Assembly (NCBI GenBank): GCA_017472305.1
Contig: JAFUQP010000002.1
Location: 2,143 to 66,142, forward strand
Source: Clostridia bacterium
GTDB lineage: Bacteria > Bacillota > Clostridia > Oscillospirales > CAG-272
Length of the DNA: 64,000 bases
Direction of reading: 5' to 3'
The translations under genes were made by a program, and so were the position numbers. Below the pieces are notes generated by a model, which saw only the letters and a program-made list of their open reading frames with translations, made no database searches and was not told where the DNA came from. Positions 8,502 through 45,760 of this stretch are shown here, piece by piece (position 1 is the first letter of the stretch; each line of letters opens with the position of its first letter).

Positions 8502-10961
8502 ATGCCTAAAAGGCAGAACGGAGATTGTATGGACAAGCTTAAAACTGAAACGCTACAAACAGAGGATACTCTCCCAAAAAAGGAGAGCTTTCCTTCAAGA
8601 CTCGGAAAGCTTCTGCTCGGCAAGGGGCTCGGCTATTCTGTGGGCAGGCGCGCGCTTATATTTGACCTTGCAGTGCTTGCGCTCGGCTTTCTTTTCGCGA
8701 GATGCCACGTGATATTCGGGGCGCACCCCTTGGGAATTGCCCTCGTTTCGGTGCTTACGAAGGGGGTATGGCAGGCAACGCTCGGCGCGCTTATAGGCTC
8801 GTTCTCCCTCGGCAGCGACGGAATAATCTATGCAGTGTCCTCGGCTATAGTCGCGGTGCTGCGAGTGCTCGTAACCTCTAGGGATAAAAACGGTGAGGCA
8901 GGCGTCCCCTTTGCCGAGAGCCTGCTGCTGCGAATGTCGGTTGCCACTCTTGGCGGCTTTGTGTCAGCGGTATACGAGGTGCTGCTTGCGGGGCTCTCGG
9001 GCACGTCGCTTCTCTTTGGCGTGTCGATGATTCTGATACCGCCGGCACTGACGTTCGTATTTTCAGGCATATTCTGCCTCGGAATATCCTTCGAAGAATT
9101 CATTTTCGGCAATTCCAACGTATTTTCTCTACAGGAGAGGGACGAGGGCGAGAGGTACGGGATAATTTTCTTCCAGCTCTCCGCCTGCGTCTTTCTCTTC
9201 TTTGTCACCCTCTCAATGCGGGAGATTGAGCTCTTAGGCATATCAGCCTCGTATATTTTCGTCAGCCTTGTATCGCTCGTCGTATCGAAGCGCTTCGGCC
9301 CGCTTCGCGCGCTTGCCGTCGGCTTTACCGCAACACTCGGGCTATCAGCCTCGCACGCGGTGTCCTTTGCGCTTATGGGTCTTTCCTCGGGAATTCTCTT
9401 TGGCTTTGGAACTGCGGCAGGACTCGTCGGCGGAGGTGCTGCGCTCTCGCTATGGAGCTCCTACTCCGAGGGGCTTCTCGGCTTTCTCTCCACTCTTCCC
9501 GAGTACGCCATTGCCGCAGTGCTCTCTATTCCTCTTGTCAAGAGCATATCTGCCGAGAGGAGTGAGAAGGAGAGCCGCGAGAGCACAAGAGAGGCAGAGG
9601 AGATGGTCGGCTCTTGCGCCCTTGCCTATCGAACGAAGCACTCCCCCTCACTCGATGCGCTCGGAGCTGCGCTCGGGTCGATTGCGTTGCTAATCAGGGA
9701 CGAAACCGAGGAGCGCACCCCTGCCCTTGCCGACTACAGAAGGCTCGTTCACACAGTGCTTACCGAAAGATGCAGGCTTTGCGACGGCGCGCCTCTTTGC
9801 AAAGAGCATAAAATCCCCGAGGAGATAATAGCCGAGGACAGAATCGCGCAAAGGCTGCTTTCGGGCGAGCGGTGCAGAGCCGAGGACGTCAATACCGAAA
9901 CCGCCTTCTGTCAGCACGCAGCTGAGGTTGCGGGAATGATAAACGAGCGCGCGGCAGCCCTTGAGCGTGAAAAATACAAGCGCGATAAATCTGCAAGCTC
10001 TGAGGAGCTGGAGCTTATTTCAAGACTGCTATGCGAGGCACGCGAGCGCGACCGCGAGGAGCTTGTCCTCAACTCCGAGGACACCGAAAAATGCTCGTCG
10101 GCACTTGCGAGGCTCGGGCTCTCGTCGGCAGTTATAAGAGTTTTCGGCGTGGCGCGACGGCATATTATTTTAGCTCTCGAGGACGAGGTCGGCGACAGAA
10201 TTACATCAAGCGAGCTTCACGCAGCCCTAGCCACAGCCCTCGGCGCTCCGCTCAAAGCCCCCGAATATTTCAGACGCGGAAAAATGGCACTTATGGAGTG
10301 TGAGCTCGAGAAAAAATACCGTGTCGAATACTCAACCGCAACCGCGGCAGGAAGGGGAAACAAGGTTTCCGGAGATACCGCGGCGGGATTTGTTTCGGAC
10401 TCGGGACACTTCTATTCCCTGATTTCCGACGGCGAGGGTACGGGCGAGTCGGCGCGTAATACCTCGGTGTTCGTGCTCGATCTTCTACGAAATGTTCTCA
10501 ACCTCGGCATATCGACCGAGTCGGTGCTCTATACTCTCAATATGATGCTCCTGCGAAGGCGCGAGGAATGCTCGGCAACCGTTGACCTCTTTGAATTCGA
10601 CCTTCATACAGGCGAGGCAACGTTTATTAAGAGCGGAGCTGCTCCCTCGTTTGTGAAGCGAGGCGACTCGGTGTTCAGAATACGCTCGAAAACCGCCCCG
10701 ATAGGGCTTATGCAGTCTATAGACACCGAGAAAATCCGCGCCGAAATTCTCCCCGGCGACACGGTTATTATGCTCTCCGACGGAATAGCCTCCTCTCCCG
10801 AGGAAGCGCCCTGGCTTGTCGAGATGCTTGGCAGAAGCGCAAGAAGGTCAACGCGTGACCTGTCCGAGCTGATACTCGCCGAGGCTCGCCGACGCTCGCC
10901 AACCGACGACGATATGACGGTGAGCGTGTTGAGGATTGCAGCCAACGCAAACCTTAATTGA
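8502..10961 (+). CDS. spoIIE: Stage II sporulation protein E (membrane PP2C phosphatase)
   Basis: A polytopic N-terminal half and a C-terminal PP2C-like SGDTAAGF...SDGEGTGE...MLSDGI. An alternative start is ATG 8529 (MDKLK), which follows ACGGAG. Confidence 0.9.
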   Translation: MPKRQNGDCMDKLKTETLQTEDTLPKKESFPSRLGKLLLGKGLGYSVGRRALIFDLAVLALGFLFARCHVIFGAHPLGIALVSVLTKGVWQATLGALIGSFSLGSDGIIYAVSSAIVAVLRVLVTSRDKNGEAGVPFAESLLLRMSVATLGGFVSAVYEVLLAGLSGTSLLFGVSMILIPPALTFVFSGIFCLGISFEEFIFGNSNVFSLQERDEGERYGIIFFQLSACVFLFFVTLSMREIELLGISASYIFVSLVSLVVSKRFGPLRALAVGFTATLGLSASHAVSFALMGLSSGILFGFGTAAGLVGGGAALSLWSSYSEGLLGFLSTLPEYAIAAVLSIPLVKSISAERSEKESRESTREAEEMVGSCALAYRTKHSPSLDALGAALGSIALLIRDETEERTPALADYRRLVHTVLTERCRLCDGAPLCKEHKIPEEIIAEDRIAQRLLSGERCRAEDVNTETAFCQHAAEVAGMINERAAALEREKYKRDKSASSEELELISRLLCEARERDREELVLNSEDTEKCSSALARLGLSSAVIRVFGVARRHIILALEDEVGDRITSSELHAALATALGAPLKAPEYFRRGKMALMECELEKKYRVEYSTATAAGRGNKVSGDTAAGFVSDSGHFYSLISDGEGTGESARNTSVFVLDLLRNVLNLGISTESVLYTLNMMLLRRREECSATVDLFEFDLHTGEATFIKSGAAPSFVKRGDSVFRIRSKTAPIGLMQSIDTEKIRAEILPGDTVIMLSDGIASSPEEAPWLVEMLGRSARRSTRDLSELILAEARRRSPTDDDMTVSVLRIAANANLN

Positions 10962-11056
10962 CAAAGCCCAGAGCATCAATAATTCCCGCTCTTTCCCGAA
11001 AGCTCGCCGACAAGCCTCAATCCTTTCCCAAGATAAAGCAACAATTAAATAATTAC

Positions 11057-11194: not shown

Positions 11195-11288
11195 ATATGT
11201 TTCTCCGTATTCAGTTAGAAGGGGCTCTTCCCCTCGTTTTCATTATATGTTTTTTTCGCCGACGGGACACAAAACCGAATATGCGTTA

Positions 11289-15312: not shown

Positions 15313-17175
15313 ATGAATTACGTGCATTGGCAAAGACCGAAAACAACGAGAAGATATATTCACCCACCGATGTCACAGCGTATGTATACTCTTTGGCGCG
15401 AGGGCAAATTCATATTTGGCGAGGCAGAAAAGGCGGTGCGTGACGAATACCTCGACCTTGTCAGCGCAGGGCTTACCTTCCTTCGGGGAGAGGCTTCTGA
15501 GCTCTTCGACTTCAAGTCGGCGAAGATTTTCCACCGCGAGGACGGTATTCCCGTTCACGGGCTCGGCTTCAAGCTCGGCGCGCTTGATTTTACAGTTGAG
15601 GCTTGCGCCCCCTTCGGGCTCACCCCCGCCTGCTTTATCAAGGCAACGCTCAAAAACAGTACCAAAGAAGAGGCAACCGAAGCTCTCGGATTTATGGTCA
15701 GAACAGGCCGCGAGTCGGCTCTCGTTATAGAGTCGCCCGACGTCTATGCAAGCTACGCGCCCGACCTCTCCGTATGGGAGCGTGTCAAGGCGACCTGGGC
15801 AGAAAAGGACGGAGTACTCACCGACGGCGAGAGATTTATAACCATCTCGGGTGACTTCGGCTTCGTGTTCGATAAGGAGCGCGGTATAGGCAAGTCAAGG
15901 GTGACACTCGCTGCGGGCGAGGAAAAGACCGTATATCTCGCCTTCGACTGCGGAAAACCCACCGCCCCCGACTACGAGGCGGCGCGCGCCGAGTGCATAA
16001 AGAGCTGGCAACGTGAGCTTCAGAGAATTAACAAGCTCCCCGAGGGACTTAAGGCGCAGCCAAGACACGAAACGACAGTAAGGCAGCTCACAGTTCAGCT
16101 GCTTCAGTGCTTCTGCCGTCCGAAGGGCTGCGACTTTGTGCTTGCAAGGCAGGGAGGACTCCAAAGGCAGGTATGGACCTATGAAACTATGCCCGTGCTC
16201 GAGGCGCTCTCCCGCATTGGCGATTTCGACGACTATATCGAGCCTATAATAGACGTATACTTCAACGAATTTGCAACCGAGTCGGGCGAGATTGTACCCC
16301 TCGCAATTCCGTGGGCAATGGCTACGGGCAACGTGCTCCAGAGCTTTGGCAGATACGCAGTACAGAGAGGCGACAAGGACTTCTTCAATAAGTACCGCGA
16401 CAAGGCGTATGCCGCCTTCAAGTGGATGAAGGAGCTTCGCGCCTCGGTTAAGGCAGAGGAAACCGTTGTACCCGGGCTCTTCCCGCCCCTTCGCAGCTGT
16501 GACGACGAGCTCGTATTCCAGGCTTGGTGCTCCACCGATACCTTCAATATCAAGGGTATCACCGCCTTTGCCGAGGCTTGCCACCACTTCGGTGACGAGG
16601 CTTACGGAGAGGTTTATGCCGAGTGCGAGGACTACAGAGCAACAATTCAGAGGCTCTGGGACAGCTTCAAGGCGGCACAAACCGAGGGCGACCTCAAAAT
16701 ACCCTTCTCCCCCGGTGTGCCCGACGAGGTAATAATGAAAACCTACCACTTCGCATATCCCGTCTCTTATTTCGTTGAGGGAATGGACCTTCCTATAGAC
16801 GAGGGCGAGAGAGTATTTGAAACCTACAAGAGGCTCGGTATGATACGCGGCGACGGAGTGCTCTGTGACAGAATGCCCGATAAGGCGTCGGATATAAAGG
16901 AAAGCGGCTCAACCCGCTTCAACCTTGACGAGAACGGCAGGTGCGTCGTGTGGTACGTCTGCTGCCACGAGTATTCGTGGTTCCAGTACTATATGCGCCA
17001 CGGCAGGCTCGATATGTGCGAAAGGCTTCTTCGCGGCGTATACGATTACTCAATGACCGACGAATACTATATGCTGGAGCGCTACAACGAGCGCGACCCC
17101 TATTTTGTCCCCTGGAGTCCCAACGCCTCTGCCAACGGCAGAACAATCTGTATGCTGCTTGATTTTTACAAATAA
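15313..17175 (+). CDS. Hypothetical cytoplasmic protein, 620 aa; function not recognised (possibly an alpha/alpha-barrel glycosidase-like fold)
   Basis: A long ORF with an AAAGGAG RBS and no signal peptide. I recognise no diagnostic motif. Confidence 0.7.
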   Translation: MNYVHWQRPKTTRRYIHPPMSQRMYTLWREGKFIFGEAEKAVRDEYLDLVSAGLTFLRGEASELFDFKSAKIFHREDGIPVHGLGFKLGALDFTVEACAPFGLTPACFIKATLKNSTKEEATEALGFMVRTGRESALVIESPDVYASYAPDLSVWERVKATWAEKDGVLTDGERFITISGDFGFVFDKERGIGKSRVTLAAGEEKTVYLAFDCGKPTAPDYEAARAECIKSWQRELQRINKLPEGLKAQPRHETTVRQLTVQLLQCFCRPKGCDFVLARQGGLQRQVWTYETMPVLEALSRIGDFDDYIEPIIDVYFNEFATESGEIVPLAIPWAMATGNVLQSFGRYAVQRGDKDFFNKYRDKAYAAFKWMKELRASVKAEETVVPGLFPPLRSCDDELVFQAWCSTDTFNIKGITAFAEACHHFGDEAYGEVYAECEDYRATIQRLWDSFKAAQTEGDLKIPFSPGVPDEVIMKTYHFAYPVSYFVEGMDLPIDEGERVFETYKRLGMIRGDGVLCDRMPDKASDIKESGSTRFNLDENGRCVVWYVCCHEYSWFQYYMRHGRLDMCERLLRGVYDYSMTDEYYMLERYNERDPYFVPWSPNASANGRTICMLLDFYK

Positions 17176-17213
17176 GGCGAAAAACGCAAAACCAAATAAA
17201 AATAGCCCTTTGG

Positions 17214-17247
17214 CAAAAAAGAGCCTCACATTCAAGTGAGGCTCTTT
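17214..17247. terminator. Bidirectional terminator between convergent genes
   Basis: AAAAAAA GAGCCTCAC attcaa GTGAGGCTC TTT. Confidence 0.8.
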
Positions 17248-17380: not shown

Positions 17381-18757
17381 TCAAATATTCTCCGCAAATT
17401 TGCGAACGGGCTTTCTGTTGTCCATAATCGCTTTAAATACCGCGCTCTCATACTCTCCAAAGAGCGGCACGCCGTCCTTCTCGGGAACACCGAGAACGTC
17501 GGAAATTACCCATACCATTGAGTTCGTGCCGAGAACACCTGCATCCATATCACCTTCAACCGTTCTTGGAATTGCACAGGGCGCACCCTGCATAGTCCAG
17601 GTCGAATATGCCTGAAGATAGGAGAACGAGCCGTCGGGCTTCTTGAATTTCAGAGTCTTGTCCCTCGTAATTCTTATAGCCTCGGGTGCGAGTCTGTAAA
17701 GCTCACAGCGCAGCTTCCTTGAAAGCTCGGGTGAGTAGTGCTCGTCAATGTTAAGCAGCAGCCTCTTGACAGAAACCCAGGGATTCCATACGGTGACTAT
17801 CGTGTCAGGCTCCTCGGGCGACATAATTGCCGCTATTGCCGCCTTCATAGCCTTCTCGGGGTTAGGAACGGGCTTGTGCATCTTGGTGTATGCACAGGCA
17901 ATCTTCATAAGTCCGTTAGAGCCGTAATAGTCGCACTTCTCGTGCCAGATGCCGTTGTCCTCACGCTGATGCGAGTCGAAGAATTCAGCAAGAGCCTCGA
18001 TATACTCGGGGCCGCGAGTCTTAAGCGTTGAAATCTGCTCTGAAAGAACAGAGCCAACGTTATAGCTTCTGTGGTCGAGGTCGAGAGTCGAGAGATACTC
18101 CTTGAAGGCTTCAAGAGTCTTCATATTGTCGGGAATAAGTATGTCGCCGCCCTCGCCGCCGTCGCTCATAGTCGGGTATTTCGGACGTCTGCCGTATCTC
18201 TTAAGAAGAATAAGCGCGCGGTCGTAGTCCCTGCAACGTCTGCCAATGCCGATATTCTTGCCCCATTGCGGATGGTAGAAGAAGCCGTCCTTGTCCTGAA
18301 GGTTCTCAACGAACGCCATCATTTTCTCGCTGTGCTCCTTGCCGAACCACTCGTTTACGTGCTCCTCGTCGGTAAGTCCACAGCTCTCGACGAAATCAAA
18401 AATCGAGTTCATAGCCTCGACAACGGGAAGAAATCCTACGTTATCTCTCGCCGAATGTGTATAGTGGAAGCCCGCCGTTCCGCAAAGCGGGTGATGCTCG
18501 CACTCGCTTTTGCCGTAAAGCTCGTTACAAACGCAAATATCGGGGTCGTAGAGGTTAGCCATCCACTTAATAAGCCCGACGTCATATATTGCGTGAAGCT
18601 CCTTGAACGCCTCGACTATCTCCTTTTTGTTCGGAGCGTCGAGCTTTTCCTCAAAGCGCGCCCACTGTCTTTTCTTTGTTTCAGCATCTCTCGCCTTGAG
18701 CTCGGCTACGAGCTCGGGAGAAAGTCCGTCATCAATACTGCCTATAAATTTTTCCAT
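17381..18757 (-). CDS. Cytoplasmic alpha/alpha-toroid (prenyltransferase/terpenoid-cyclase-like repeat) protein, 458 aa; a full-length paralog of an internal domain of the 1629-aa lipoprotein
   Basis: Q-x-x-(D/N)G-x-(F/W) repeats are present (LQDKDGFFYHPQW, HQREDNGIWHE). It is colinear with residues ~225-690 of ORF 20746..25668: LYDP...SARDN.GFLP, QD..G.FYHPQW, LAPEAI...FKK.DGS. Confidence 0.8.
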   Translation of the reverse strand: MEKFIGSIDDGLSPELVAELKARDAETKKRQWARFEEKLDAPNKKEIVEAFKELHAIYDVGLIKWMANLYDPDICVCNELYGKSECEHHPLCGTAGFHYTHSARDNVGFLPVVEAMNSIFDFVESCGLTDEEHVNEWFGKEHSEKMMAFVENLQDKDGFFYHPQWGKNIGIGRRCRDYDRALILLKRYGRRPKYPTMSDGGEGGDILIPDNMKTLEAFKEYLSTLDLDHRSYNVGSVLSEQISTLKTRGPEYIEALAEFFDSHQREDNGIWHEKCDYYGSNGLMKIACAYTKMHKPVPNPEKAMKAAIAAIMSPEEPDTIVTVWNPWVSVKRLLLNIDEHYSPELSRKLRCELYRLAPEAIRITRDKTLKFKKPDGSFSYLQAYSTWTMQGAPCAIPRTVEGDMDAGVLGTNSMVWVISDVLGVPEKDGVPLFGEYESAVFKAIMDNRKPVRKFAENI

Positions 18758-18875: not shown

Positions 18876-20504
18876 TTAGTTAGGAGCCTTGTATTCCTTA
18901 CAAATCTTTGCACCGCAAACGTTGTCGACATAGAATTCAACGTTTCTAAAGCGAGCATCGAACATAAGGCTTGCAGTATTATAATCCGCAACCGTCTTTC
19001 CGGTAGCAGTAGCGAATGAGCCTACACATACACCGTCAATATAAACAAGGCAGGTATTGGCATCGGTATAAACCTCGTATGTAATACGGTACCAAGTGTT
19101 AGCAAGAAGGTCATACTTGGAATCTGTCACGCCGGGAAGGCGAAGGGCGTTCTCTCCCTTTGCACTCTTGTACTTTGTGCTTGTTTCATCGTATGCCTTA
19201 ACACCGTCAAGATCAATTGTCTGTACACCCTTCTGAAGAGTCTTTGTAAGAGTGTTATATGACTTGCCGGAAGATGACGTTAGGTCGTCCGAATTCATAA
19301 GGAAGTAAACAGTTCCGGAATCGGTATCCGACTCATTGTTATAATAAACGTCAGCTCCATTGTAGTAGAAGTCATACTCAAATACTACGCAATTTGCACT
19401 TTCCGAGGTTGTCTTGTATATCGGGAAATGAAGCAAGGTTTGTGTACCCGTCTCACCTGACTCAACCGAAGGCTTGCTACCGCCGATTATCGCACCGTAC
19501 TTCTCAAATCCGGAGTCCTTAAGAAGATATGCGCAACTATTCTTTGAGAAGTTGGTATGAGCCACGTAGTTGTTACCACCGTTTCCAATGAAATCCTTCC
19601 ACGTCCAGCCGTCCATCGTGTAAGCAGAATCACCTATCTCGTCAAAGTACTTACCAGCAGTAACGCCTATCTCGTAAGGAATTACAACGGTATTGCCGGT
19701 TACGGTGATAGTGTCGCCGTCGTTTGCAACCTTGCGGTCAATCTCAACGCCGTTCTGACCGTAGGTGAAAATGCTCCAGCCCTTGATAGCCTCGGTGTCG
19801 TTTGCGTTAAGGGTGATAGAGGTATTAGCCTCAACGAAGCCGCGGTCTGCGGTAGCCTCACCTGCGGTGAAGGTGCCGTCAAGCACGGAAACGTAGGTAT
19901 ACTCCTTAACGAGTCTTTCTCTCTCTGCCTCTGCCTTACCATAGTTTACGTGAAGGTTCTGAGCCGCGGAGCCCATATCGAGCATACCAAAGTAGAACTC
20001 CTTCTGATAGTAGGAATAGAGGTCGGCGTCCTCCTCGGAAGCGAGAACTGCGCCATCTCTGTAAAGACGCTCAAACGCGTACTCCATTACGCTATAGGTG
20101 ATAACCTTCTTTGCTCCTGCCGACTCGGTTTCGATATACCAAACGTCAGCGAAGTCCTTTGCGGCAACGCCTGCGGTGGTGAATACGATTACCGCGGTTT
20201 CGGGAGTTCTGTCGCCGTCGAGGTCGATGTCCTCGGTAGCGGTTTTAGCCTTTGTTTCCTCAAAAGCGAGCTTTGCCTCTTGCTCAGAGGGGTCTCTGTC
20301 GTATACGCGGAGAGTTACGTCCTCGCCTGCGACGGTTGCGGGGTCAACTGCGAACATAAGGCAGAAATCGCCTGTGTCCATAACGTTCTTACTGATAATT
20401 TCGGGTGCTGCATTCTCGGCACTTACGGAAATTCCTACCGCACCGCCCACGAGAAGCGCGAGCGAAAGCACGAGAAGCAGGAGTTTTGTTACGCGATTTT
20501 TCAT
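18876..20504 (-). CDS. Secreted protein, 542 aa, with a C-terminal LamG/ConA-like module
   Basis: Signal peptide MKNRVTKLLLLVLSLALLVGGAVGISVSA. The C-terminal WYRITYEVYTDANTCLVYIDGVCVG...FYVDNV matches the LamG-type pattern. Confidence 0.8.
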   Translation of the reverse strand: MKNRVTKLLLLVLSLALLVGGAVGISVSAENAAPEIISKNVMDTGDFCLMFAVDPATVAGEDVTLRVYDRDPSEQEAKLAFEETKAKTATEDIDLDGDRTPETAVIVFTTAGVAAKDFADVWYIETESAGAKKVITYSVMEYAFERLYRDGAVLASEEDADLYSYYQKEFYFGMLDMGSAAQNLHVNYGKAEAERERLVKEYTYVSVLDGTFTAGEATADRGFVEANTSITLNANDTEAIKGWSIFTYGQNGVEIDRKVANDGDTITVTGNTVVIPYEIGVTAGKYFDEIGDSAYTMDGWTWKDFIGNGGNNYVAHTNFSKNSCAYLLKDSGFEKYGAIIGGSKPSVESGETGTQTLLHFPIYKTTSESANCVVFEYDFYYNGADVYYNNESDTDSGTVYFLMNSDDLTSSSGKSYNTLTKTLQKGVQTIDLDGVKAYDETSTKYKSAKGENALRLPGVTDSKYDLLANTWYRITYEVYTDANTCLVYIDGVCVGSFATATGKTVADYNTASLMFDARFRNVEFYVDNVCGAKICKEYKAPN

Positions 20505-20563: not shown

Positions 20564-20701
20564 TCAGCTTCCTGTCCAACCGCCGCCGTTTTTATCCGGC
20601 TCTCCAAGCGTAGGAATTATCAGGCTTGTTGCTATCACGTCGCTGTCCTTAAAGCTCGTCACCGTAAGAATCGGCTCTGTGTAGCCTTTCTTTTCCTTCA
20701 T
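20564..20701 (-). CDS. Small ORF of 45 aa between the giant lipoprotein gene and the 542-aa gene
   Basis: My own translation gives MKEKKGYTEPILTVTSFKDSDVIATSLIIPTLGEPDKNGGGWTGS. AAAGGAG lies 8 nt upstream. An in-frame alternative ATG is at 20719. It is too short for the ORF track. Confidence 0.55.
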   Translation of the reverse strand: MKEKKGYTEPILTVTSFKDSDVIATSLIIPTLGEPDKNGGGWTGS

Positions 20702-20745
20702 AGTCGGCGCTCCTTTCATAGTTTTTTATTGTTTTGCGTTTGATT

Positions 20746-23700
20746 TTATTTAATCCATTCTTCAGGCGAGGGCGTATAGCTTCCCGTCCAGCCCGAGCCG
20801 TCAACGCTGTCGCTTTCGTCGGGGGTGGTGGGAATATTGCCTATATCGTCAAATCCAACGTCGGCGTCGGGGTTGCTCGGGCCCTGATAGGAGTAATCGG
20901 GCTTCTCGTCGGGGTCTACGCTGTCGCCGCCCGTGTTATCGCCGCCGGGATTATCGCCGCCGGGGTTGTCGCCGCCTGTACCGGGTGTGTCACCGCCCTC
21001 GTCGGGGTCGGGGTCGGGGGTATTGGTGTCAGAGAGCGCCGCCGCGTGATAGAGCTTCACGTCGTCAAAGAGGAGCATACCCTCTGCCGCCTGCGACGTA
21101 TAGAAGCGAATGCCGGTCACCTTGTCTGCGGTGATGGGTGTTTCGTAGAAGTAGCTTATCGTACTAGTTGAAACGTAGGAGTCGTTGACGAAGATATTGA
21201 CGTTCAGTATGCCGTCAACTACTGCGTACTCAAGGCGGAGCTTGAAGAGCTTTTCCTCGCTTCCTATAGTAGTCGTATCTATTGTACCTAACTTGCCTAT
21301 CGTATCGCCAACCGTCACGGCACCGCCGCCGCGCTTGAAGCCGAGGTTGCAGTACCATACCTTGTTGCCGTCGGAATTCAGAAGGTAGACCTCAACCGAG
21401 GAGGAAGCCTTCGAGTCGTAGCAGTCGAGGTAGAGATAGCTCTCGTAAACCGTCACAAGTGCAGACGAGCTCTTGTCGGCTGCCTTCATATAGAAGTTAA
21501 GGGTATCGTTGCCGCCCGTGGAGGTGCGAAGCGAGAGGAACTTCGAATATATCGGATTTCCGTCCCCGTCCTTGCCAACCTCAAGTCCCTTAACGCCGAG
21601 CTGCGCCTTTGCGGAGCGAGCTTCAAACTTCGTGTCGGGTATGGGATTATTCGGGTGCGCGTTCTCAAAGTCAAATCCGTTATCGGGAGTAAGCACGACG
21701 TTCGAGAAAGGATTTTCTACGTAGAAGGCTATAGTGTTCTCGCAGATTACGTCGTCAAGCGTTACACCGCCCGAGCCCGAAACGTTGGTTACCGTGAGAT
21801 ATGCGGGAGTAAGATTTTCACTTCCGTATATGTGTGTCAGAGTGTTTAGGGCAACGAGCTTTCTGCCAACGTAGGCAGTCATCATTCCCTCGTCAATCAT
21901 ATAGAGAAATTCAAGCTCAAAGCCGCTCGAGCCTACTGTGCTTCGCGAGAGAACAGCGCCATTACCGCCCGCGTAATACTCAGAGAGGGTTACGCTCCTG
22001 CCCTTAATCTCGACGTCGAGATTTATTATGGGGGTGCCGTCGTCACTGTGAAGAGTAAATCTGTAGGTTCCGCTTGCCGAGGAGGTTGCGCTGAGCGCTC
22101 CGACGAATCTTAAGGTGTTCTTAACGACGCTTCTGTCGGTCGGAAGGAGCTTCAAGGAAGCACCCGTAGAGCCAAGCTTCCCGCGCTCGCTCTGTATAGC
22201 CGCGCCGCCTGTGAGAGATACGAGGGAGTCCTCACCCTTGAAGGTGTGAACTATCGAGTCGTTTGTCGGGGAAACTCTGTCAAGGAAGTCAAGCTCGTCA
22301 CGCTCAAAGATAAGGTTGTCGAGCATAACAGTACCGACACCGCCCTTTACCGGGGTAATCTCAAGCAGCTCTGCTCTGTACTGCTGCGCACCTGCACAGA
22401 CCTGTGAGCTCATTCCAAGCAAAGTATCGTTTACATAAACGAGGATTGCAGGCTCTTCGGTGAAGTATTCAAGGCGAAGCTTGAAGCTCTCGCCCACGGG
22501 AACCTCAAAGCCCTTTACCGCGCCGCCCGCCGCTCCGTCGGGAGCCTCGACGAGCCTTACGACCTTGCCGCCGGACACGCTCGCTACCGCGAGGTCAAAG
22601 CAGGTTACGTCGTTGAGCCTCGAGTTGTTTTCACGCGTTGTGAGCCTTAGCACCGTGCCATTAGCATCTGCCGATACGGTAACGTCGCTCTCAAAGACCA
22701 TAGCGCGGGATTTGTTGCTTCTTACGTTAATAGGTAGGCTTACCTTGTACTCCGCACCCGCATTAATCGAGAGAGCGCGCGAGCCTGTCACGGAGTTTTC
22801 GGCAAGGGTCACCGCGTCCGCGTCGCCCTCGACGGTAAATACAGACGGAAGACCGTCGCCGTCAAATCTGTGCGTTTCCCTGCCCCTTGATGGTGCGTCG
22901 ATATTAATAGGCGCACTCTTCTCGACCTCATAGACCTGGCTTGTTCCGTAGCAGGCAACGTTATCCATCCAGAGCGTTGCCTCACAGCCCGTTACCGCAA
23001 TAATATTCGTGAAGGAGAAGGACTGCCTCGGCTCCGCCTCGCCCGAGAGCTTCGCTCCCGAGTCGTCGAAGAAGTTATCGGTTACCGCGATAAGCTCGCC
23101 GTTGAAGTAAAGCTTCGCTCTCACGGTTTCCTTGTCGCCCTTGAAGTAGACCATCTTGAAGTTGAACCACTCGCCAACCTTTGCTACGGCGTCAATCTCG
23201 GTTCGTACCTCAAATGAGGGCTTACGCGAGGAGCATTCCCACATTCTGACCTCGTCGCACGTGATGTTAAGCGTTACCATATAAACCGAGTCCTGCATAA
23301 GTATCTGGAACTCGGCGTCCCTCTTGCTCTTTTCGGGAACGCAGAAATCGGCTTCAAAGACGTAGCAGGTGGTATTCGGTGCAACGCCCGCCGCCTTAAT
23401 CTCGAGCGCTTCGTAGCAACCGAGCGCGGTGTCGAACTCCATAGCAAGGTTTGCGGGTTCGCCCTTTATGGGTGCGGCTACTACGCTGAGTGAGCCATCC
23501 GAAAGAGAGGTAGCGTTTACTCCGACAGGCTTTCCGCCGACGGTATCGTTATCAAAGTGAATGTAATCAACCTTAATCTCGCCCGAGTCCTTTACAATTT
23601 CGCCGAGTCCCTCGAGCCTCTTGACAAGCCTCATATAGTCGGCTCTCGTAAATATTCTCGGCATGATATCAATCGTGCCCGTGGTCTTGAAGAAGTCCTC

Positions 23701-25635
23701 AACAAGTCCGCCCATAGTGAGGGTGGTGGAGTTAATATCGCCCTCGTCAACGTTCGGAACGGCAACCTTCATACTCTGGCTCGTAGAGGTGTTCTGCCCA
23801 ATAAGATAGGTTATAGAGCCGTCGTTTTTCTTGAAAATAGCCTGCTTCTGGGTCGTTGCGTTGATTGCCTCGGGGGCAAGGGCAAGCATCTTGTCACGAA
23901 CCTCAGCGTACTGCGCCTTTTCCTCGGGGGTTTCGGAGTAGTCGCGAAGGTTAATCATAGTCTGGTTAAGCGAGCCCCACACGTTGTAGGTATAGAGAAC
24001 CGTTTCAACAGGCTGCTCCGAGGTCAGCATCGCTACTATAGACTCAATCGCAAGCGCCGCGCGCGGCACGGGAGCCTCGAGCTTGTTGTATACGTTTATC
24101 GCCTTGTAGTATGCGTTGGTGTTCGCGTAGGTGAGTCCCTCGTCCCAGAGTCCCGTTTCGGGGTTCTGATGCGCCGAGAGCCACTCTATCTCTATCTCTG
24201 CAAGAGAGTAACTCGCACCCTCTGCGCGAAGCTCCGCATCTCTTGCCAGCAGCTGCGTTGTGTTGGTGGTAAGCTCGTTTGCAATCTGATAGAAGGAGCG
24301 GTAGTTCGAGTGAGTTTTATCGAGCTTGTTCCTTGCCGAGAGGTCGTCAAGGTAGGCTCTGAATTTCGCCTCGCTGGTCAGCTGCTCAAATCCCGCGATA
24401 GTCGAGGTCGCGACAACGCGAGAGGCAAGAATTGCAGCATTTCTGCCCGAAAGCCTCGGAGAAAGGCGCGAATAGGTGGTCGGAGCAACGCCGCCAACGT
24501 AGCTGCCGTCGGCTAAAATGCCGTCACCCTTGACCCCCGTCGGTGTGTCGTAGGTGGGAAGCGCGTAAAAGCGTTCAAGCACCTGCACGGCGCTTCCTAC
24601 GTCACGGCCCATACGCTGAGTGTTTTTCTCAAGCTCCTCTCTGTCCCACTGCGGGTGATAGAAGTAACCGTTCGGGTCCTGGAGCCCCTTCGCAAACCTT
24701 ACAATCTGTTTACCGAACCAATCGGGGAAATCGTGACTGCCCGTCATACCGGAGCTGACGAAGAAGCCGAGAGCCTGCGCGGTTGACTCAATATCGGGAA
24801 GGAAGCCCTCGGTGTTTCTCGCCGAGTTCGAGAAGTAGAAGCCGCCGATGTACGGGTCGTAGAGGTCTGCAAACCAATCGACGACGTTGTCGGTGCATAT
24901 ATAATCGTAGTAAGAGCGTATCGCCGCTGCAAACTCCTCGTGGTTCGGGGTCCTCTTAGCAAGCTCCTCCTCGAAGGTCGCCCACTTTGCCGCCTGCGTT
25001 ACAGCGTCAAGCTCCTCCTGGTACTCTATTACGTCATAGGCAAGGTATCTTACTCTGCCCTCTTTCGGGGCAAGCACCTTACTGTCGCCTATTAGCTCGT
25101 CAATAAGACAGGAGAAGGCTCGAGTTTCGGCGGATTTTGATGTGTAGGTTTCACCGTCAAAGACAACTGCGAGCGACTCGCCGTCAGAGTAGATAACGTA
25201 ACCGACGTAGCCCTCGCGGTATTCCTTGATACGCTCGAGGTACCTGTATGCAAGCTTTGAAATCTCTCTTGAGGACTGACCGATTACAATCTCGTGAGCC
25301 TTAGCGCTTGACGTGTTATCGGCTACGGTAACCGCAACACCCGTTGCCGCCTCGATTTTCTCAATAAGCCTTTCTGTGTCGGCGTATTCGCCGTCGGTGA
25401 CAACCGTCACGGCAGTGCCCGGGGCAAATACGTATCTGTCGGGAATCACTCCGTCAGACGAGTCACCGGAGCCGGAATTATCGCCCGAGCCCGAGTCGCC
25501 CGAGCCGGAATTGCCCGAGCCGGAATTGCCGGAGCCCGAGTCACCCGAGCCTTCGTCACCGTCGCCGCCTATCTTGCACGCGTAAAGCGAGAAAACCAGC
25601 GAAAGCATCAAAAATATGTATAGTAGCTTTTTCAT
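20746..25635 (-). CDS. Giant surface lipoprotein, 1629 aa. Order of parts: lipobox, GS-rich linker, N-terminal domain, alpha/alpha-toroid domain, at least 4 LamG-like modules, GGDNP linker, C-terminal tail.
   Basis: MKKLLYIFLMLSLVFSLYAC lipobox; the start was moved to ATG 25635. Recurrent modules: FNFKMVYF..LYFNGELI..MDNV, FKLRLEYF..VYVNDTLL..LDNL, FELEFLYM..AYVGRKLV, FKLRLEYA..IFVNDSYV..FDDV. Confidence 0.85.
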   Translation of the reverse strand: MKKLLYIFLMLSLVFSLYACKIGGDGDEGSGDSGSGNSGSGNSGSGDSGSGDNSGSGDSSDGVIPDRYVFAPGTAVTVVTDGEYADTERLIEKIEAATGVAVTVADNTSSAKAHEIVIGQSSREISKLAYRYLERIKEYREGYVGYVIYSDGESLAVVFDGETYTSKSAETRAFSCLIDELIGDSKVLAPKEGRVRYLAYDVIEYQEELDAVTQAAKWATFEEELAKRTPNHEEFAAAIRSYYDYICTDNVVDWFADLYDPYIGGFYFSNSARNTEGFLPDIESTAQALGFFVSSGMTGSHDFPDWFGKQIVRFAKGLQDPNGYFYHPQWDREELEKNTQRMGRDVGSAVQVLERFYALPTYDTPTGVKGDGILADGSYVGGVAPTTYSRLSPRLSGRNAAILASRVVATSTIAGFEQLTSEAKFRAYLDDLSARNKLDKTHSNYRSFYQIANELTTNTTQLLARDAELRAEGASYSLAEIEIEWLSAHQNPETGLWDEGLTYANTNAYYKAINVYNKLEAPVPRAALAIESIVAMLTSEQPVETVLYTYNVWGSLNQTMINLRDYSETPEEKAQYAEVRDKMLALAPEAINATTQKQAIFKKNDGSITYLIGQNTSTSQSMKVAVPNVDEGDINSTTLTMGGLVEDFFKTTGTIDIMPRIFTRADYMRLVKRLEGLGEIVKDSGEIKVDYIHFDNDTVGGKPVGVNATSLSDGSLSVVAAPIKGEPANLAMEFDTALGCYEALEIKAAGVAPNTTCYVFEADFCVPEKSKRDAEFQILMQDSVYMVTLNITCDEVRMWECSSRKPSFEVRTEIDAVAKVGEWFNFKMVYFKGDKETVRAKLYFNGELIAVTDNFFDDSGAKLSGEAEPRQSFSFTNIIAVTGCEATLWMDNVACYGTSQVYEVEKSAPINIDAPSRGRETHRFDGDGLPSVFTVEGDADAVTLAENSVTGSRALSINAGAEYKVSLPINVRSNKSRAMVFESDVTVSADANGTVLRLTTRENNSRLNDVTCFDLAVASVSGGKVVRLVEAPDGAAGGAVKGFEVPVGESFKLRLEYFTEEPAILVYVNDTLLGMSSQVCAGAQQYRAELLEITPVKGGVGTVMLDNLIFERDELDFLDRVSPTNDSIVHTFKGEDSLVSLTGGAAIQSERGKLGSTGASLKLLPTDRSVVKNTLRFVGALSATSSASGTYRFTLHSDDGTPIINLDVEIKGRSVTLSEYYAGGNGAVLSRSTVGSSGFELEFLYMIDEGMMTAYVGRKLVALNTLTHIYGSENLTPAYLTVTNVSGSGGVTLDDVICENTIAFYVENPFSNVVLTPDNGFDFENAHPNNPIPDTKFEARSAKAQLGVKGLEVGKDGDGNPIYSKFLSLRTSTGGNDTLNFYMKAADKSSSALVTVYESYLYLDCYDSKASSSVEVYLLNSDGNKVWYCNLGFKRGGGAVTVGDTIGKLGTIDTTTIGSEEKLFKLRLEYAVVDGILNVNIFVNDSYVSTSTISYFYETPITADKVTGIRFYTSQAAEGMLLFDDVKLYHAAALSDTNTPDPDPDEGGDTPGTGGDNPGGDNPGGDNTGGDSVDPDEKPDYSYQGPSNPDADVGFDDIGNIPTTPDESDSVDGSGWTGSYTPSPEEWIK

Positions 25636-25703: not shown

Positions 25704-25881
25704 CTCGGCGGGAAAATCAAACGCAATTAGAGGAGTACGCCGCTTCTTTGGCTCGCGCCGACAAGATTTTCAAGTCATACTAATTGCGTTACTGTGGAAT
25801 AGATTGTTCTATTATTAATCAAAAGAGTTATATATCTATATATATTATAACACATTACTTCCTTATAAACAAGCCAAAAAT

Positions 25882-25911
25882 GTTCGTGATTTTCAATAAA
25901 AAATCACGAAC
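25882..25911. terminator. Hairpin terminator downstream of the catabolic operon
   Basis: GTTCGTGATTTT caataa AAAATCACGAAC, with an A-run before it and a T-rich tract after it. Confidence 0.65.
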
Positions 25912-26011
25912 ACTTTTGTTCAAACAGAATATCTGTGAGGAAATTTGTTTAGCTTTTGAGAAAGTCTTTGCCAAATAATTTGGTAGCAAAAACTCAAAAA
26001 AAATCAAGTTC

Positions 26012-44758: not shown

Positions 44759-45760
44759 ATGGACTCTAATAAGAGACCTGAAACCATGGCGCGCATCACC
44801 ACGAAGGAGCTTGCCGACGCGTTTATCGCCGAGCAGGTTGCCGAGGTAAGACGCACCGTCGGCGACAAGAAGGTGCTCCTTGCACTCTCGGGCGGTGTTG
44901 ACAGCTCGGTTGTTGCCGCGCTTCTCATAAAGGCTATCGGAAAGCAGCTCGTCTGCGTTCACGTTAACCACGGACTTATGCGTAAGAACGAGTCCGAGGG
45001 AGTAATCGAGGTCTTCAGAAACCAGCTCGACGCTAACCTTATCTACGTTGACGCGACCGACCGCTTCTTAAATCTCCTTGCAGGCGTATCAGAGCCCGAG
45101 AAGAAGAGAAAAATTATCGGCGCAGAGTTCATAAACGTATTTGCCGACGAGGCACGCAGCCTCGAGGGCATTGATTTCCTCGCGCAGGGTACGATTTACC
45201 CTGATATACTCGAGAGCATCAAGCAGGCAGAGGGCAAGAAGGCAGTCAAGTCGCACCACAACGTTGGCGGACTTCCCGAGGACCTCGACTTTGAGCTTGT
45301 CGAGCCCATAAAGCTCCTTTACAAGGACGAGGTTCGCGTTGTCGGCGAGGCGCTCGGACTTCCTCACGGTATGGTATACCGTCAGCCCTTCCCCGGCCCC
45401 GGTCTTGGCGTTCGCTGCCTCGGTGCTATCACCCGCGACAGACTTGAAGCGCTCCGCGAGGCTGATGCAATTCTCCGCGACGAGTTCGACAAATCGGGCC
45501 TTGCAGAGAAGGTATGGCAGTATTTCGTAGTAATCCCCGACATCAAGTCGGTAGGAGTAAAGGACGACAGCCGCTATGAGGGCTGGCCCGCGATAATCCG
45601 CGCCGTAAACACCAAGGACGCAATGACAGCCTCCATCGAGGAGATACCCTACGCAGTCCTTCACAAGATAGTCGACCGCATCACAAACGAGGTCGAGGGC
45701 ATCAACCGCGTGCTTTATGACCTCACACCGAAGCCTACCGGAACGATAGAATGGGAATAA
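44759..45760 (+). CDS. guaA: GMP synthase ATP-pyrophosphatase plus dimerisation domains only (no glutamine amidotransferase domain), 333 aa
   Basis: The KVLLALSGGVDSSVVAALL PP-loop and the C-terminal ...KPTGTIEWE. Only ~25 residues precede the PPase domain. Confidence 0.8.
   Translation: MDSNKRPETMARITTKELADAFIAEQVAEVRRTVGDKKVLLALSGGVDSSVVAALLIKAIGKQLVCVHVNHGLMRKNESEGVIEVFRNQLDANLIYVDATDRFLNLLAGVSEPEKKRKIIGAEFINVFADEARSLEGIDFLAQGTIYPDILESIKQAEGKKAVKSHHNVGGLPEDLDFELVEPIKLLYKDEVRVVGEALGLPHGMVYRQPFPGPGLGVRCLGAITRDRLEALREADAILRDEFDKSGLAEKVWQYFVVIPDIKSVGVKDDSRYEGWPAIIRAVNTKDAMTASIEEIPYAVLHKIVDRITNEVEGINRVLYDLTPKPTGTIEWE

Follow-up and report, generated by a model that had tools for sequence, protein, structure and literature searches.

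What is a 45-codon open reading frame (ORF) likely to do when it lies directly behind the gene of a giant lipoprotein and ends in the same few residues as that lipoprotein? This question is raised by a stretch of 64,000 nucleotides from an uncultured gut bacterium of the Clostridia (contig JAFUQP010000002.1, positions 2,143 to 66,142 of the forward strand; henceforth referred to as the ‘window’, to which coordinates refer unless another locus is named). The small ORF (S) follows the gene of the giant protein (G) and precedes the genes of a secreted protein (X) and of a cytoplasmic protein (T). The original prediction held that S is a free-standing copy of the C-terminal tail module of G, placed in one operon between two secreted proteins, and suggested a competitor or decoy, a sorting or anchoring tag, a processed peptide or a relic of duplication as its possible role. 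As set out below, S has the marks of a genuine and conserved gene, and what it shares with G is confined to a short C-terminal tip. The features of S and G that bear on this are the following:

20564..20701, minus strand: S, 45 codons plus stop (stop codon at 20564-20566, ATG at 20701-20699), by translation
20710..20716, minus strand: Shine-Dalgarno sequence AAAGGAG of S, 8 nt before the ATG at 20701, read directly
20624..20701, minus strand: N-terminal module of S (residues 1-26), its best-conserved part, which has no counterpart in the giant
20567..20602, minus strand: C-terminal tip of S (residues 34-45, EPDKNGGGWTGS), the element common to the giant tail
20746..25635, minus strand: G, the giant lipoprotein of 1629 residues, ATG at 25635, by translation
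20749..20853, minus strand: tail of G, F1595-K1629 (FDDIGNIPTTPDESDSVDGSGWTGSYTPSPEEWIK), with the tip D-G-S-G-W-T-G-S at 20779-20802
20854..21018, minus strand: disordered Pro/Asp/Gly-rich linker of G before the tail, with 15-nt tandem repeats coding GGDNP units

The minus-strand ORF at 20564-20701 encodes MKEKKGYTEPILTVTSFKDSDVIATSLIIPTLGEPDKNGGGWTGS, and its ATG lies 44 nt from the stop codon of G (TAA, 20746-20748); the location, the gap, the AAAGGAG sequence and the protein and DNA strings quoted in the original prediction were all confirmed in the sequence. Gene callers chose an upstream ATG that yields a product of 51 residues (P0001), and we favour the 45-residue start from the Shine-Dalgarno spacing and the family alignment; comparable Shine-Dalgarno sequences lie ahead of the S homologues. 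An identical S protein is encoded on 14 contigs of near-identical strains, in which the S DNA is invariant and both flanking spacers vary. Relatives of S were reached via the giant protein and not via the small ORF; an exhaustive HMMER search with S, run over 1.84 billion representative proteins, brought back nothing beyond S itself and P0122. The latter is an MBG-repeat protein that we judged spurious as a relative, its score being summed over five PTLTATITGFKNSE[IV]LATS repeats. Among the loci of giant homologues (numbered L), a homologue of S lies at the same place in L010 (82% giant identity), where it differs by a single substitution, and in L011 (69% giant identity), where it reads MKEKQGYKEPILMLTLFDAGDVIATSNEQSGTLGEANGNGGGWTGS; three more forms are found in L012, L013 and L015 (giant identity 48%, 45% and 40%, respectively). 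Between L011 and the window, G is 69%, S 67% and X 57% identical. A profile search added 14 S clusters of 42-64 residues (all of 56 residues or fewer, save one read-through variant), every one of them from metagenome-assembled genomes of uncultured Clostridia or Eubacteriales and named only ‘hypothetical protein’. Locus searches yielded further members, and L030 and L032, whose giants are only ~30% identical, each carry one S. The distinct S homologues number 19, of 42-56 residues and one per cassette, and S was found in each related cassette that also encodes a secreted partner X of ~500-700 residues.

A hidden Markov model (HMM) of 17 S members detected one S and no more in each cassette when run on 9,443 six-frame ORFs, and it recovered the two members that had been left out of the model (E = 3e-14 and 4e-10); the window copy matches the family HMM with 63.8 bits (E = 6e-18) and has all motifs and the conserved position. 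The ratio of nonsynonymous to synonymous substitution rates (dN/dS) of S is 0.13-0.18 (four pairs, dS 0.07-1.6). The original prediction proposed to look for conservation and for synonymous-biased substitution; the former was found across 19 homologues and the latter in these four pairs. Pfam and NCBIfam scans of 17 S members gave no match, an Rfam scan of 17-27 kb of the window gave nothing above threshold, and full-text literature searches on motif strings and related concepts returned nothing relevant to S or its module partners. Judged by its conservation, S is a genuine small-protein gene found in uncultured gut Clostridia and lies outside all described families, and we propose a new family for it, the ‘S’ small proteins of the G-S-X-T module, of 42-56 residues and usually encoded just upstream of X.

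The N-terminal module of S has the consensus M-K-x-x-K-x-x-Y-x-x-P-x-L-x-I-x-L-φ-x3-D-[VI]-I-x-[TA]-S, in which D21 and S26 are invariant and Y7 is conserved in at least 90% of the sequences (alignment A3); in the 14-member alignment A7, I23 and T25 also reach at least 90%. It is followed by a second conserved element, G-[ST]-L-G, and, after a Gly/Asp/Glu/Asn spacer, by a third, G-G-W-T, whose W42 is invariant (17 of 17 S sequences) and whose G41 and T43 are conserved in at least 90% (alignment A3). The tip as a whole reads D-x-G-G-W-T, then 0-7 residues, and what follows W-T can be nothing, GS, ER, QWN, GSGAY, AGKT or GSYTPSPEEWIK; this variety suits an internal linear motif more than a tag that depends on the terminal carboxylate. 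Neither a signal peptide nor a hydrophobic signal was found in S. AlphaFold2 (AF2), given a 14-sequence alignment, modelled S as an extended chain with no secondary structure, with a confidence (pLDDT) of 64 overall, ~77-78 in the N-terminal part (residues 1-20) and below 50 in the tip. The tip is therefore predicted to be disordered, and the modelled picture is typical of peptides that become ordered only on a partner. Profile comparison of the N-terminal module with G, X and T gave no match. In L023-L025 and L032, which stem from the same metagenome series as the window strain, the organism appears to have three or more paralogous G/T/S/X cassettes, whose S variants differ from one another (…GWTGS, …GWTGSGAY and …GWTAGKT).

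G bears a lipoprotein-type signal (…SLVFSLYAC) and consists, in this order, of the lipobox, a Gly/Ser linker, an (α/α)6-barrel domain, several LamG-like β-sandwich modules, a disordered acidic linker and the tip, with …EKPDYSYQGPSNPDADVGFDDIGNIPTTPDESDSVDGSGWTGSYTPSPEEWIK as its C-terminal end. The likeness between S and this end had been described as a module of equal length, running exactly 43 residues from EK to GWTGS and including shared EKxxY, DV...I and IPT segments. As a count the 43 residues are correct, but the equal length and the shared segments are what chance provides: in shuffle tests only the last 13 aligned ungapped residues (D-x-x-G-W-T) of S and the G tail are more alike than expected (p = 0.001), whereas the first 30 (EK..Y, DV..I, IPT) are not (p = 0.26 ungapped, 0.45 local), and IPT is not kept, the 69%-identity relative having NEQSGT instead. 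Homology over the whole tail was rejected on these grounds. BLASTP of S against G aligned only IPT…GWTGS (11 of 21 identities, E = 0.04), hhalign of 17 S against 41 giant tails aligned only the last 15 columns (E = 5e-4), and against the full-length giant profile the sole stretch that S aligned with was columns 1554-1562 of 1564. Because the profile alignment is confined to the last 15 columns and the N-terminal block has no counterpart, S is, by this comparison, not a copy of the 43-residue tail, and the two proteins share a C-terminal tip of ~10-15 residues only. Of the free-standing tail copy, the part that stands is thus the mimicry of the giant by the C-terminal ~11-15 residues of S; its first 26 residues form a separate module absent from the giant. 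The shared G-x-GWTGS ending itself is real, and it is no low-complexity coincidence absent elsewhere: a tail ending in [acidic/Gly]-[GA]-W-[TSV] at or near the C-terminus is present in 54 of 120 giant homologues (~45%; for example …FDDIG..PT.PD….DGSGWT, …SLDFGGTDKDDSAWS and …SGGALGGDDIYDDGGWS), its Trp is invariant in 41 of 41 giant tails, and the tip is found family-wide in S. In the six-frame translation of the 64-kb window, GWTGS occurs in S and the G tail only, and in 358 kb of related loci tip-type C-termini occur on giants and S only.

Other sources for parts of S were considered and rejected. A derivation of the N-terminal part of S from the last LamG β-strand, or from the C-terminal β-domain of ‘AWS’-type giants, does not hold up, hhalign aligning the tip only; S as a copy of X residues ~262-301 (hairpin, linker and DGWT) looks good by eye, but the hhalign E is 0.67-0.96. 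X residues 287-301 (19602-19646, minus strand) contain FDEIGDSAYTMDGWT, which resembles FDDIG…DGSGWT of the giant tail, and YFDEIG is conserved in the X family at the border of the N-terminal half and the LamG half; FDDIG of the giant tail finds its best match in X there (E = 0.02 for the segment, 0.24 for the whole protein), which is not significant as homology and serves as a lead only. The giant family is large (339 homologues found, some with precomputed Laminin_G_3 or DUF1080 Pfam matches), and a Pfam scan of the window copy of G gave no match. G measures 1614, 1620 or 1629 residues among strains, with a linker of variable length; tandem repeats of 15 nt (20924-20976, GGDNP units of the C-terminal linker) and 30 nt (25459-25551, SGxSG units after the lipobox) were observed in its gene.

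The tips of S and G also co-vary between lineages, as the cognate pairs below show (‘stop’ marks a tip that ends the protein):

L012: S …NDGGWTER stop; G …DDYGWTERN stop
L013: S …EETNDGGGWT stop; G …GETNDGSGWT stop
Window and L011: S …GWTGS stop; G …GWTGS…
L020: S …FGWT stop; G …EGWT stop
L015, L023 (exception): S …GWTGS…; G …GWTKP…

Over six independent lineages the cognate pairing was equalled by 7 of 720 permutations, and in a five-lineage version of the test by 3 of 120. The DNA that codes for the tip differs synonymously between S and G, and because of these differences the match is, to judge from the coding sequences, upheld in the peptide or through old conversions rather than by fresh duplication or gene conversion. 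Because the tip is conserved family-wide and co-varies in cognate pairs, the view that selection maintains the mimicry is supported. In L011, a 23-nt stretch of tip-coding DNA is 91% identical between G and S (10829-10851 versus 11236-11258), and the G-S spacer of that locus contains an exact direct duplication of 43 nt (10879-10921 and 11005-11047, 126 nt apart) that holds the last six codons and the stop codon of the giant. Local duplication at this spot between G and S is a plausible origin of the shared tip.

Beyond the features already listed, the transcription unit comprises two further genes, the barrel domain of G and a closing hairpin:

18876..20504, minus strand: X, a secreted protein of 542 residues with a signal peptide (…GISVSA/EN) and a LamG-like C-terminal half
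17381..18757, minus strand: T, a cytoplasmic (α/α)6-barrel protein of 458 residues with no signal peptide
23701..25008, minus strand: barrel domain of G (residues ~210-645), a paralogue of T
17204..17247, no strand assigned: terminator-like bidirectional hairpin that closes the G-S-X-T transcription unit

No terminator-like site was found in the three intergenic gaps of G-S-X-T, so that no terminator precedes the one at 17204-17247; with the lipoprotein signal of G and the signal peptide of X, S does lie in one operon between two secreted proteins, as had been proposed. The steady neighbour of S is the downstream secreted protein and not the giant: of the 16 cassette types with a readable downstream gene, 14 have X as the very next gene after S, at a distance of 35-93 nt in nearly all lineages. 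Wherever the DNA beyond S was recovered, a secreted-protein gene of the X type comes after it. In L030 a GH4 gene lies between S and X, and in L026-L028 a different signal-peptide protein is encoded after S; S itself is divergent there (P0136), ending in …GTLGEGDWDTFDFGSL rather than …GGWT and having different neighbours, of which the upstream protein ends in …TFTFDDLGTEDV…. In half of the lineages T lies between the giant gene and S. The gene order is G-S-X-T in the window, L010-L014 and L017, and G-T-S-X in L015, L023-L025, L020 and L032, with one or the other wherever the four genes lie together on a contig; only T-S-X is seen on the short contigs L018 and L029, and L030 reads G-T-S-GH4-X. 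In L032 the start codon of S overlaps the stop codon of T (TAATG). L031 has a tail-less giant and two T paralogues, and both X and S are absent. P0010 (1805 residues) is a natural fusion in which the last LamG module of the giant leads directly into the C-terminal half of X, with the tail, S and the N-terminal half of X all deleted together; it may serve as a Rosetta-stone clue to a joint function of G and X. In one strain contig (L005:2067-2852), the reading frame of X continues after its first ~210 codons into the C-terminal portion of an FtsY/SRP54-type GTPase, reflecting either a chimera of the metagenome assembly or a rearrangement in the strain.

The AF2 model of T is a confident all-α barrel (pLDDT 90.5, pTM 0.90), and T gave no match to Pfam or to the sequences of the PDB. 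Foldseek placed class II terpene cyclases first (E = 4.7e-4), then the α2-macroglobulin thioester domain, GH105, GH76 and RabGGTase β, all of the (α/α)6 toroid superfold (E = 4.7e-4 to 0.3). Class II terpene cyclases, prenyltransferase β subunits and GH105/GH76 enzymes thus have the fold of T and of the N-terminal domain of G; unlike a member of any of these families, T reaches TM-scores of only ~0.3 and identities of 8-14% and has no Pfam match. T and residues 210-645 of G are 28% identical (BLASTP, E = 5e-51), and the residues invariant in free and giant-borne barrels (42 sequences) are Glu, Asp, Arg, His, Tyr and Trp, with no Cys, which suggests a glycosidase- or lyase-like site. Glycoside-hydrolase genes (GH1, GH4, GH43, GH92 and GH123 in the various loci) often adjoin the module, and AraC/PocR regulators also occur among its neighbours; those in the window encode TetR, an M20 peptidase, an epimerase, a DHDPS-like lyase and a TIM-barrel isomerase-like protein. 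As indicated by gene order and content, S is a fixed component of a four-gene module of G, S, X and T, and this module is probably glycan-degradation-like, an unrecognized glycan-processing system of uncultured gut Clostridia. Elsewhere in the window we observed a hairpin with a perfect 20-bp stem between the TIM-barrel gene and G (25875-25918; no Rfam match), which could be the terminator of the upstream operon or a regulatory element, a 620-residue protein with no Pfam family (15313-17175, plus strand) and, amid housekeeping genes, a full-length bacterial serpin gene (34046-35362, minus strand; Pfam Serpin, E = 3e-85).

How might S work within such a module? We give slightly less than an even chance to the reading that the tip is a short linear docking motif and that S, in the role of adaptor, placeholder or competitor, offers it in trans to a site used by the giant tail. 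G would display the tip in cis on a flexible tether and so bind one partner protein; S would display it in trans, its N-terminal motif engaging a second surface. Two versions of this docking model can be drawn up. In the preferred one, the barrel domain of G would bind the G tail outside the cell and the free barrel T would bind S inside it; this version is preferred because it is the only pairing that requires no export of a signal-less peptide, and cited in its favour are the presence of the barrel on both sides of the membrane (the G domain outside, T inside) and the coupling of T and S in L032. The (α/α)6 barrels of protein prenyltransferase β subunits bind C-terminal peptides in their central funnel, which gives this version a structural precedent. 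In the other version, the N-terminal half of X would be the receptor, and the giant tail would tether the otherwise unanchored X to the cell surface; for this speak the near-universal adjacency of S and X and the loss of X, S and the tail together in L031 and P0010. We place the barrel version slightly ahead. S as a competitor or decoy, as listed in the original prediction, is a live possibility.

Several findings weigh against the docking reading. S has no export signal, and an extracellular receptor (X or the G domains) would therefore need an export route for S. L031 has T paralogues and no S, and T accordingly does not need S; in L032 the giant lacks the tail and T, S and X are nevertheless present, so that S is independent of the giant tail, and a strict co-occurrence of giant tail and S, which we had considered, is broken by this locus. 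The co-variation test spans just six lineages, one of which (L015/L023, GWTGS versus GWTKP) mismatches, and the hhalign probability is low (30%), the motif being so short. A more far-reaching form of the docking reading, for which we see a low but appreciable chance, is that the tip is a new minimal docking tag of a module of surface and cytoplasmic enzymes through which S controls T, or alternatively that T is a peptide-modifying enzyme with S as its substrate. As such a docking tag, the tip would serve the giant as a tethered ligand, and S would bring it to the cytoplasm, there to govern the enzyme that is a paralogue of the giant's barrel.

Among the explanations that compete with docking, a precursor of the kind known from ribosomally synthesized and post-translationally modified peptides (RiPPs) or from pheromones is unlikely. 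In this reading, a maturation or export protein would recognize an N-terminal leader, and the Trp-containing end would be modified or released. S is short and precursor-like, has no signal peptide and is better conserved in its N-terminal part than in the rest; the AF2 model has an extended N-terminal segment at moderate confidence, as in peptides that fold on binding, and the barrel fold of T is of the terpene-cyclase/prenyltransferase type. Like the ~45-residue precursors of lasso peptides and other RRE-dependent RiPPs, S combines a β-strand-like N-terminal motif with Thr-Ser and a variable C-terminal part. The lasso leader motif bound by RRE domains is Y-x-x-P-x-L, followed by T at -2, and the N-terminal motif of S recalls it; in S, Y7 is found in at least 90% of 17 sequences, with an aliphatic residue at +5 and a nearly invariant T25-S26, Pro at +3 occurs in 10 of 17 and is missing in 7, and the Y-T spacing is three residues longer than canonical. 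The lasso core (a small first residue, Asp/Glu at 7-9) is not seen in S: after T-S the window copy reads L1…E8, and the first acidic residue is at 11 in the L013 type and at 4 in the L012 type, leaving the presumed core with no conserved ring-forming Asp/Glu. Near the window module and in the fetched cassettes there is no gene for an RRE/PqqD protein, lasso cyclase, transglutaminase-type peptidase, radical-SAM enzyme, YcaO, LanC, polyprenyl synthase, C39 peptidase or ABC exporter; Pfam scans of the window genes and the precomputed Pfam matches of cassette neighbours likewise contain no lasso cyclase, transglutaminase-like peptidase or PqqD-like RRE, and the only PF00733 match is a sub-threshold side match on GMP synthase (44759-45760). 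T-S-G-G, as in a double-glycine leader, occurs in many S sequences but not in the copies of the window (TSLII) and L011 (TSNEQ). ComX of Bacillus is likewise a precursor of ~50 residues with no signal peptide and a conserved Trp a few residues from its C-terminus, and the invariant W42 of S lies 1-7 residues from the end, a feature that is not specific to ComX; unlike ComX, S has no sequence similarity to that protein and no ComQ or ComP neighbour (no PF00348 polyprenyl synthase of the ComQ type, histidine kinase or response regulator near any cassette) and sits in a glycan-degradation-like operon. RiPP logic, moreover, leaves unexplained why the presumed core end is also found on a Sec-exported lipoprotein of 1,629 residues, and the invariant residues that T has in common with the extracellular G barrel point to hydrolase- or lyase-type chemistry that needs no cytoplasmic cofactors. 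We regard it as quite improbable that the tip is a tag for a general factor encoded outside the module (a protease or adaptor, a secretion chaperone or an envelope component), with S as a decoy or sensor set against not-yet-exported giant. The topology is consistent with such a factor, the C-terminus of the giant leaving the cytoplasm last and S staying there, and such a factor would account for the persistence of S in L032, whose giant is tail-less; the flexible linker with an acidic tip ending in an aromatic residue also resembles the C-terminus of single-stranded DNA-binding protein (SSB). But the fetched 358 kb hold the tip on G and S and not on other secreted proteins, the co-variation within cassettes and the joint loss with X point to a partner inside the module, and the variable extension after W-T speaks against recognition of the extreme C-terminus.

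An upstream ORF that acts in cis on X, its W-containing motif stalling the ribosome as in arrest peptides of the SecM, MifM or TnaC type, is a very remote prospect. It would account for the close and recurrent placement of S ahead of a secreted-protein gene and for the invariant Trp and Gly near the stop codon, but the S-X spacer is A-rich and unstructured, a predicted fold spanning the S 3′ end, spacer and X start shows no pairing at the ribosome-binding site of X (z-score -1.1), and the arrest point is not fixed, the distance from W to the stop codon ranging from 1 to 7 codons; S has neither a signal nor a transmembrane segment with which to sense secretion, the GH4 gene of L030 separates it from X, and stalling gives no reason for co-variation with the giant tail. 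We give the least credence to S as a decaying relic of a duplicated giant 3′ end or a low-complexity coincidence. Local duplication does happen here, as the exact 43-nt repeat of L011 shows, and the tip region is Gly-rich; the dN/dS values, the frame kept intact in 19 divergent homologues that each have a Shine-Dalgarno sequence, the conservation down to ~30%-identical giants, the N-terminal module unrelated to the giant and a Trp that is invariant in an otherwise varying tip refute the relic as a description of the present-day gene, and an ancient duplication of the giant 3′ end is plausible only as the origin of the tip. A sorting or anchoring tag in the classical sense is also unlikely: W-T is followed by just 0-12 hydrophilic residues with no transmembrane segment or basic stretch, and NCBIfam and Pfam scans of G and S found nothing relevant to LPXTG, PEP-CTERM-like or GlyGly-CTERM domains. 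The tip does recall dockerin-cohesin, LPXTG, PEP-CTERM-type and WxL/Csc systems as a C-terminal element that recurs on surface or secreted proteins of glycan-degrading loci, possibly for surface assembly, and in Csc clusters a small protein belongs to the cluster as S does to its module; unlike those tags, it measures ~6-13 residues, has no Ca-binding repeats, transmembrane helix or basic tail, and is also carried by a small protein of cytoplasmic type. With the SSB tip it has in common a Gly/Pro/acid-rich flexible linker, an acidic patch with an aromatic residue and the placing of one tip on different proteins, whereas compartment, sequence and partners differ and the analogy is one of design only. 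Because S departs from lasso clusters, ComX/ComQ, double-glycine leaders, sorting domains and arrest ORFs alike, because S, G, X and T have no family assignment and because our literature searches found nothing on them, S would appear to lie outside the known kinds, and its function is one that we infer.

Overall, none of G, S, X and T has a Pfam or NCBIfam assignment, although gut metagenomes contain more than 300 members of the giant family alone. S clearly exemplifies a conserved micro-protein that carries no name in annotation and escapes placement by ordinary homology searches, and its co-varying tip offers a 10-residue peptide handle on how the parts of the module assemble or are regulated. 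If the tip is a minimal docking tag, it would make a compact tool for protein tethering, and if S indeed uses this tag inside the cell to govern the barrel paralogue, the intracellular and extracellular steps of one degradation pathway would be matched through molecular mimicry.

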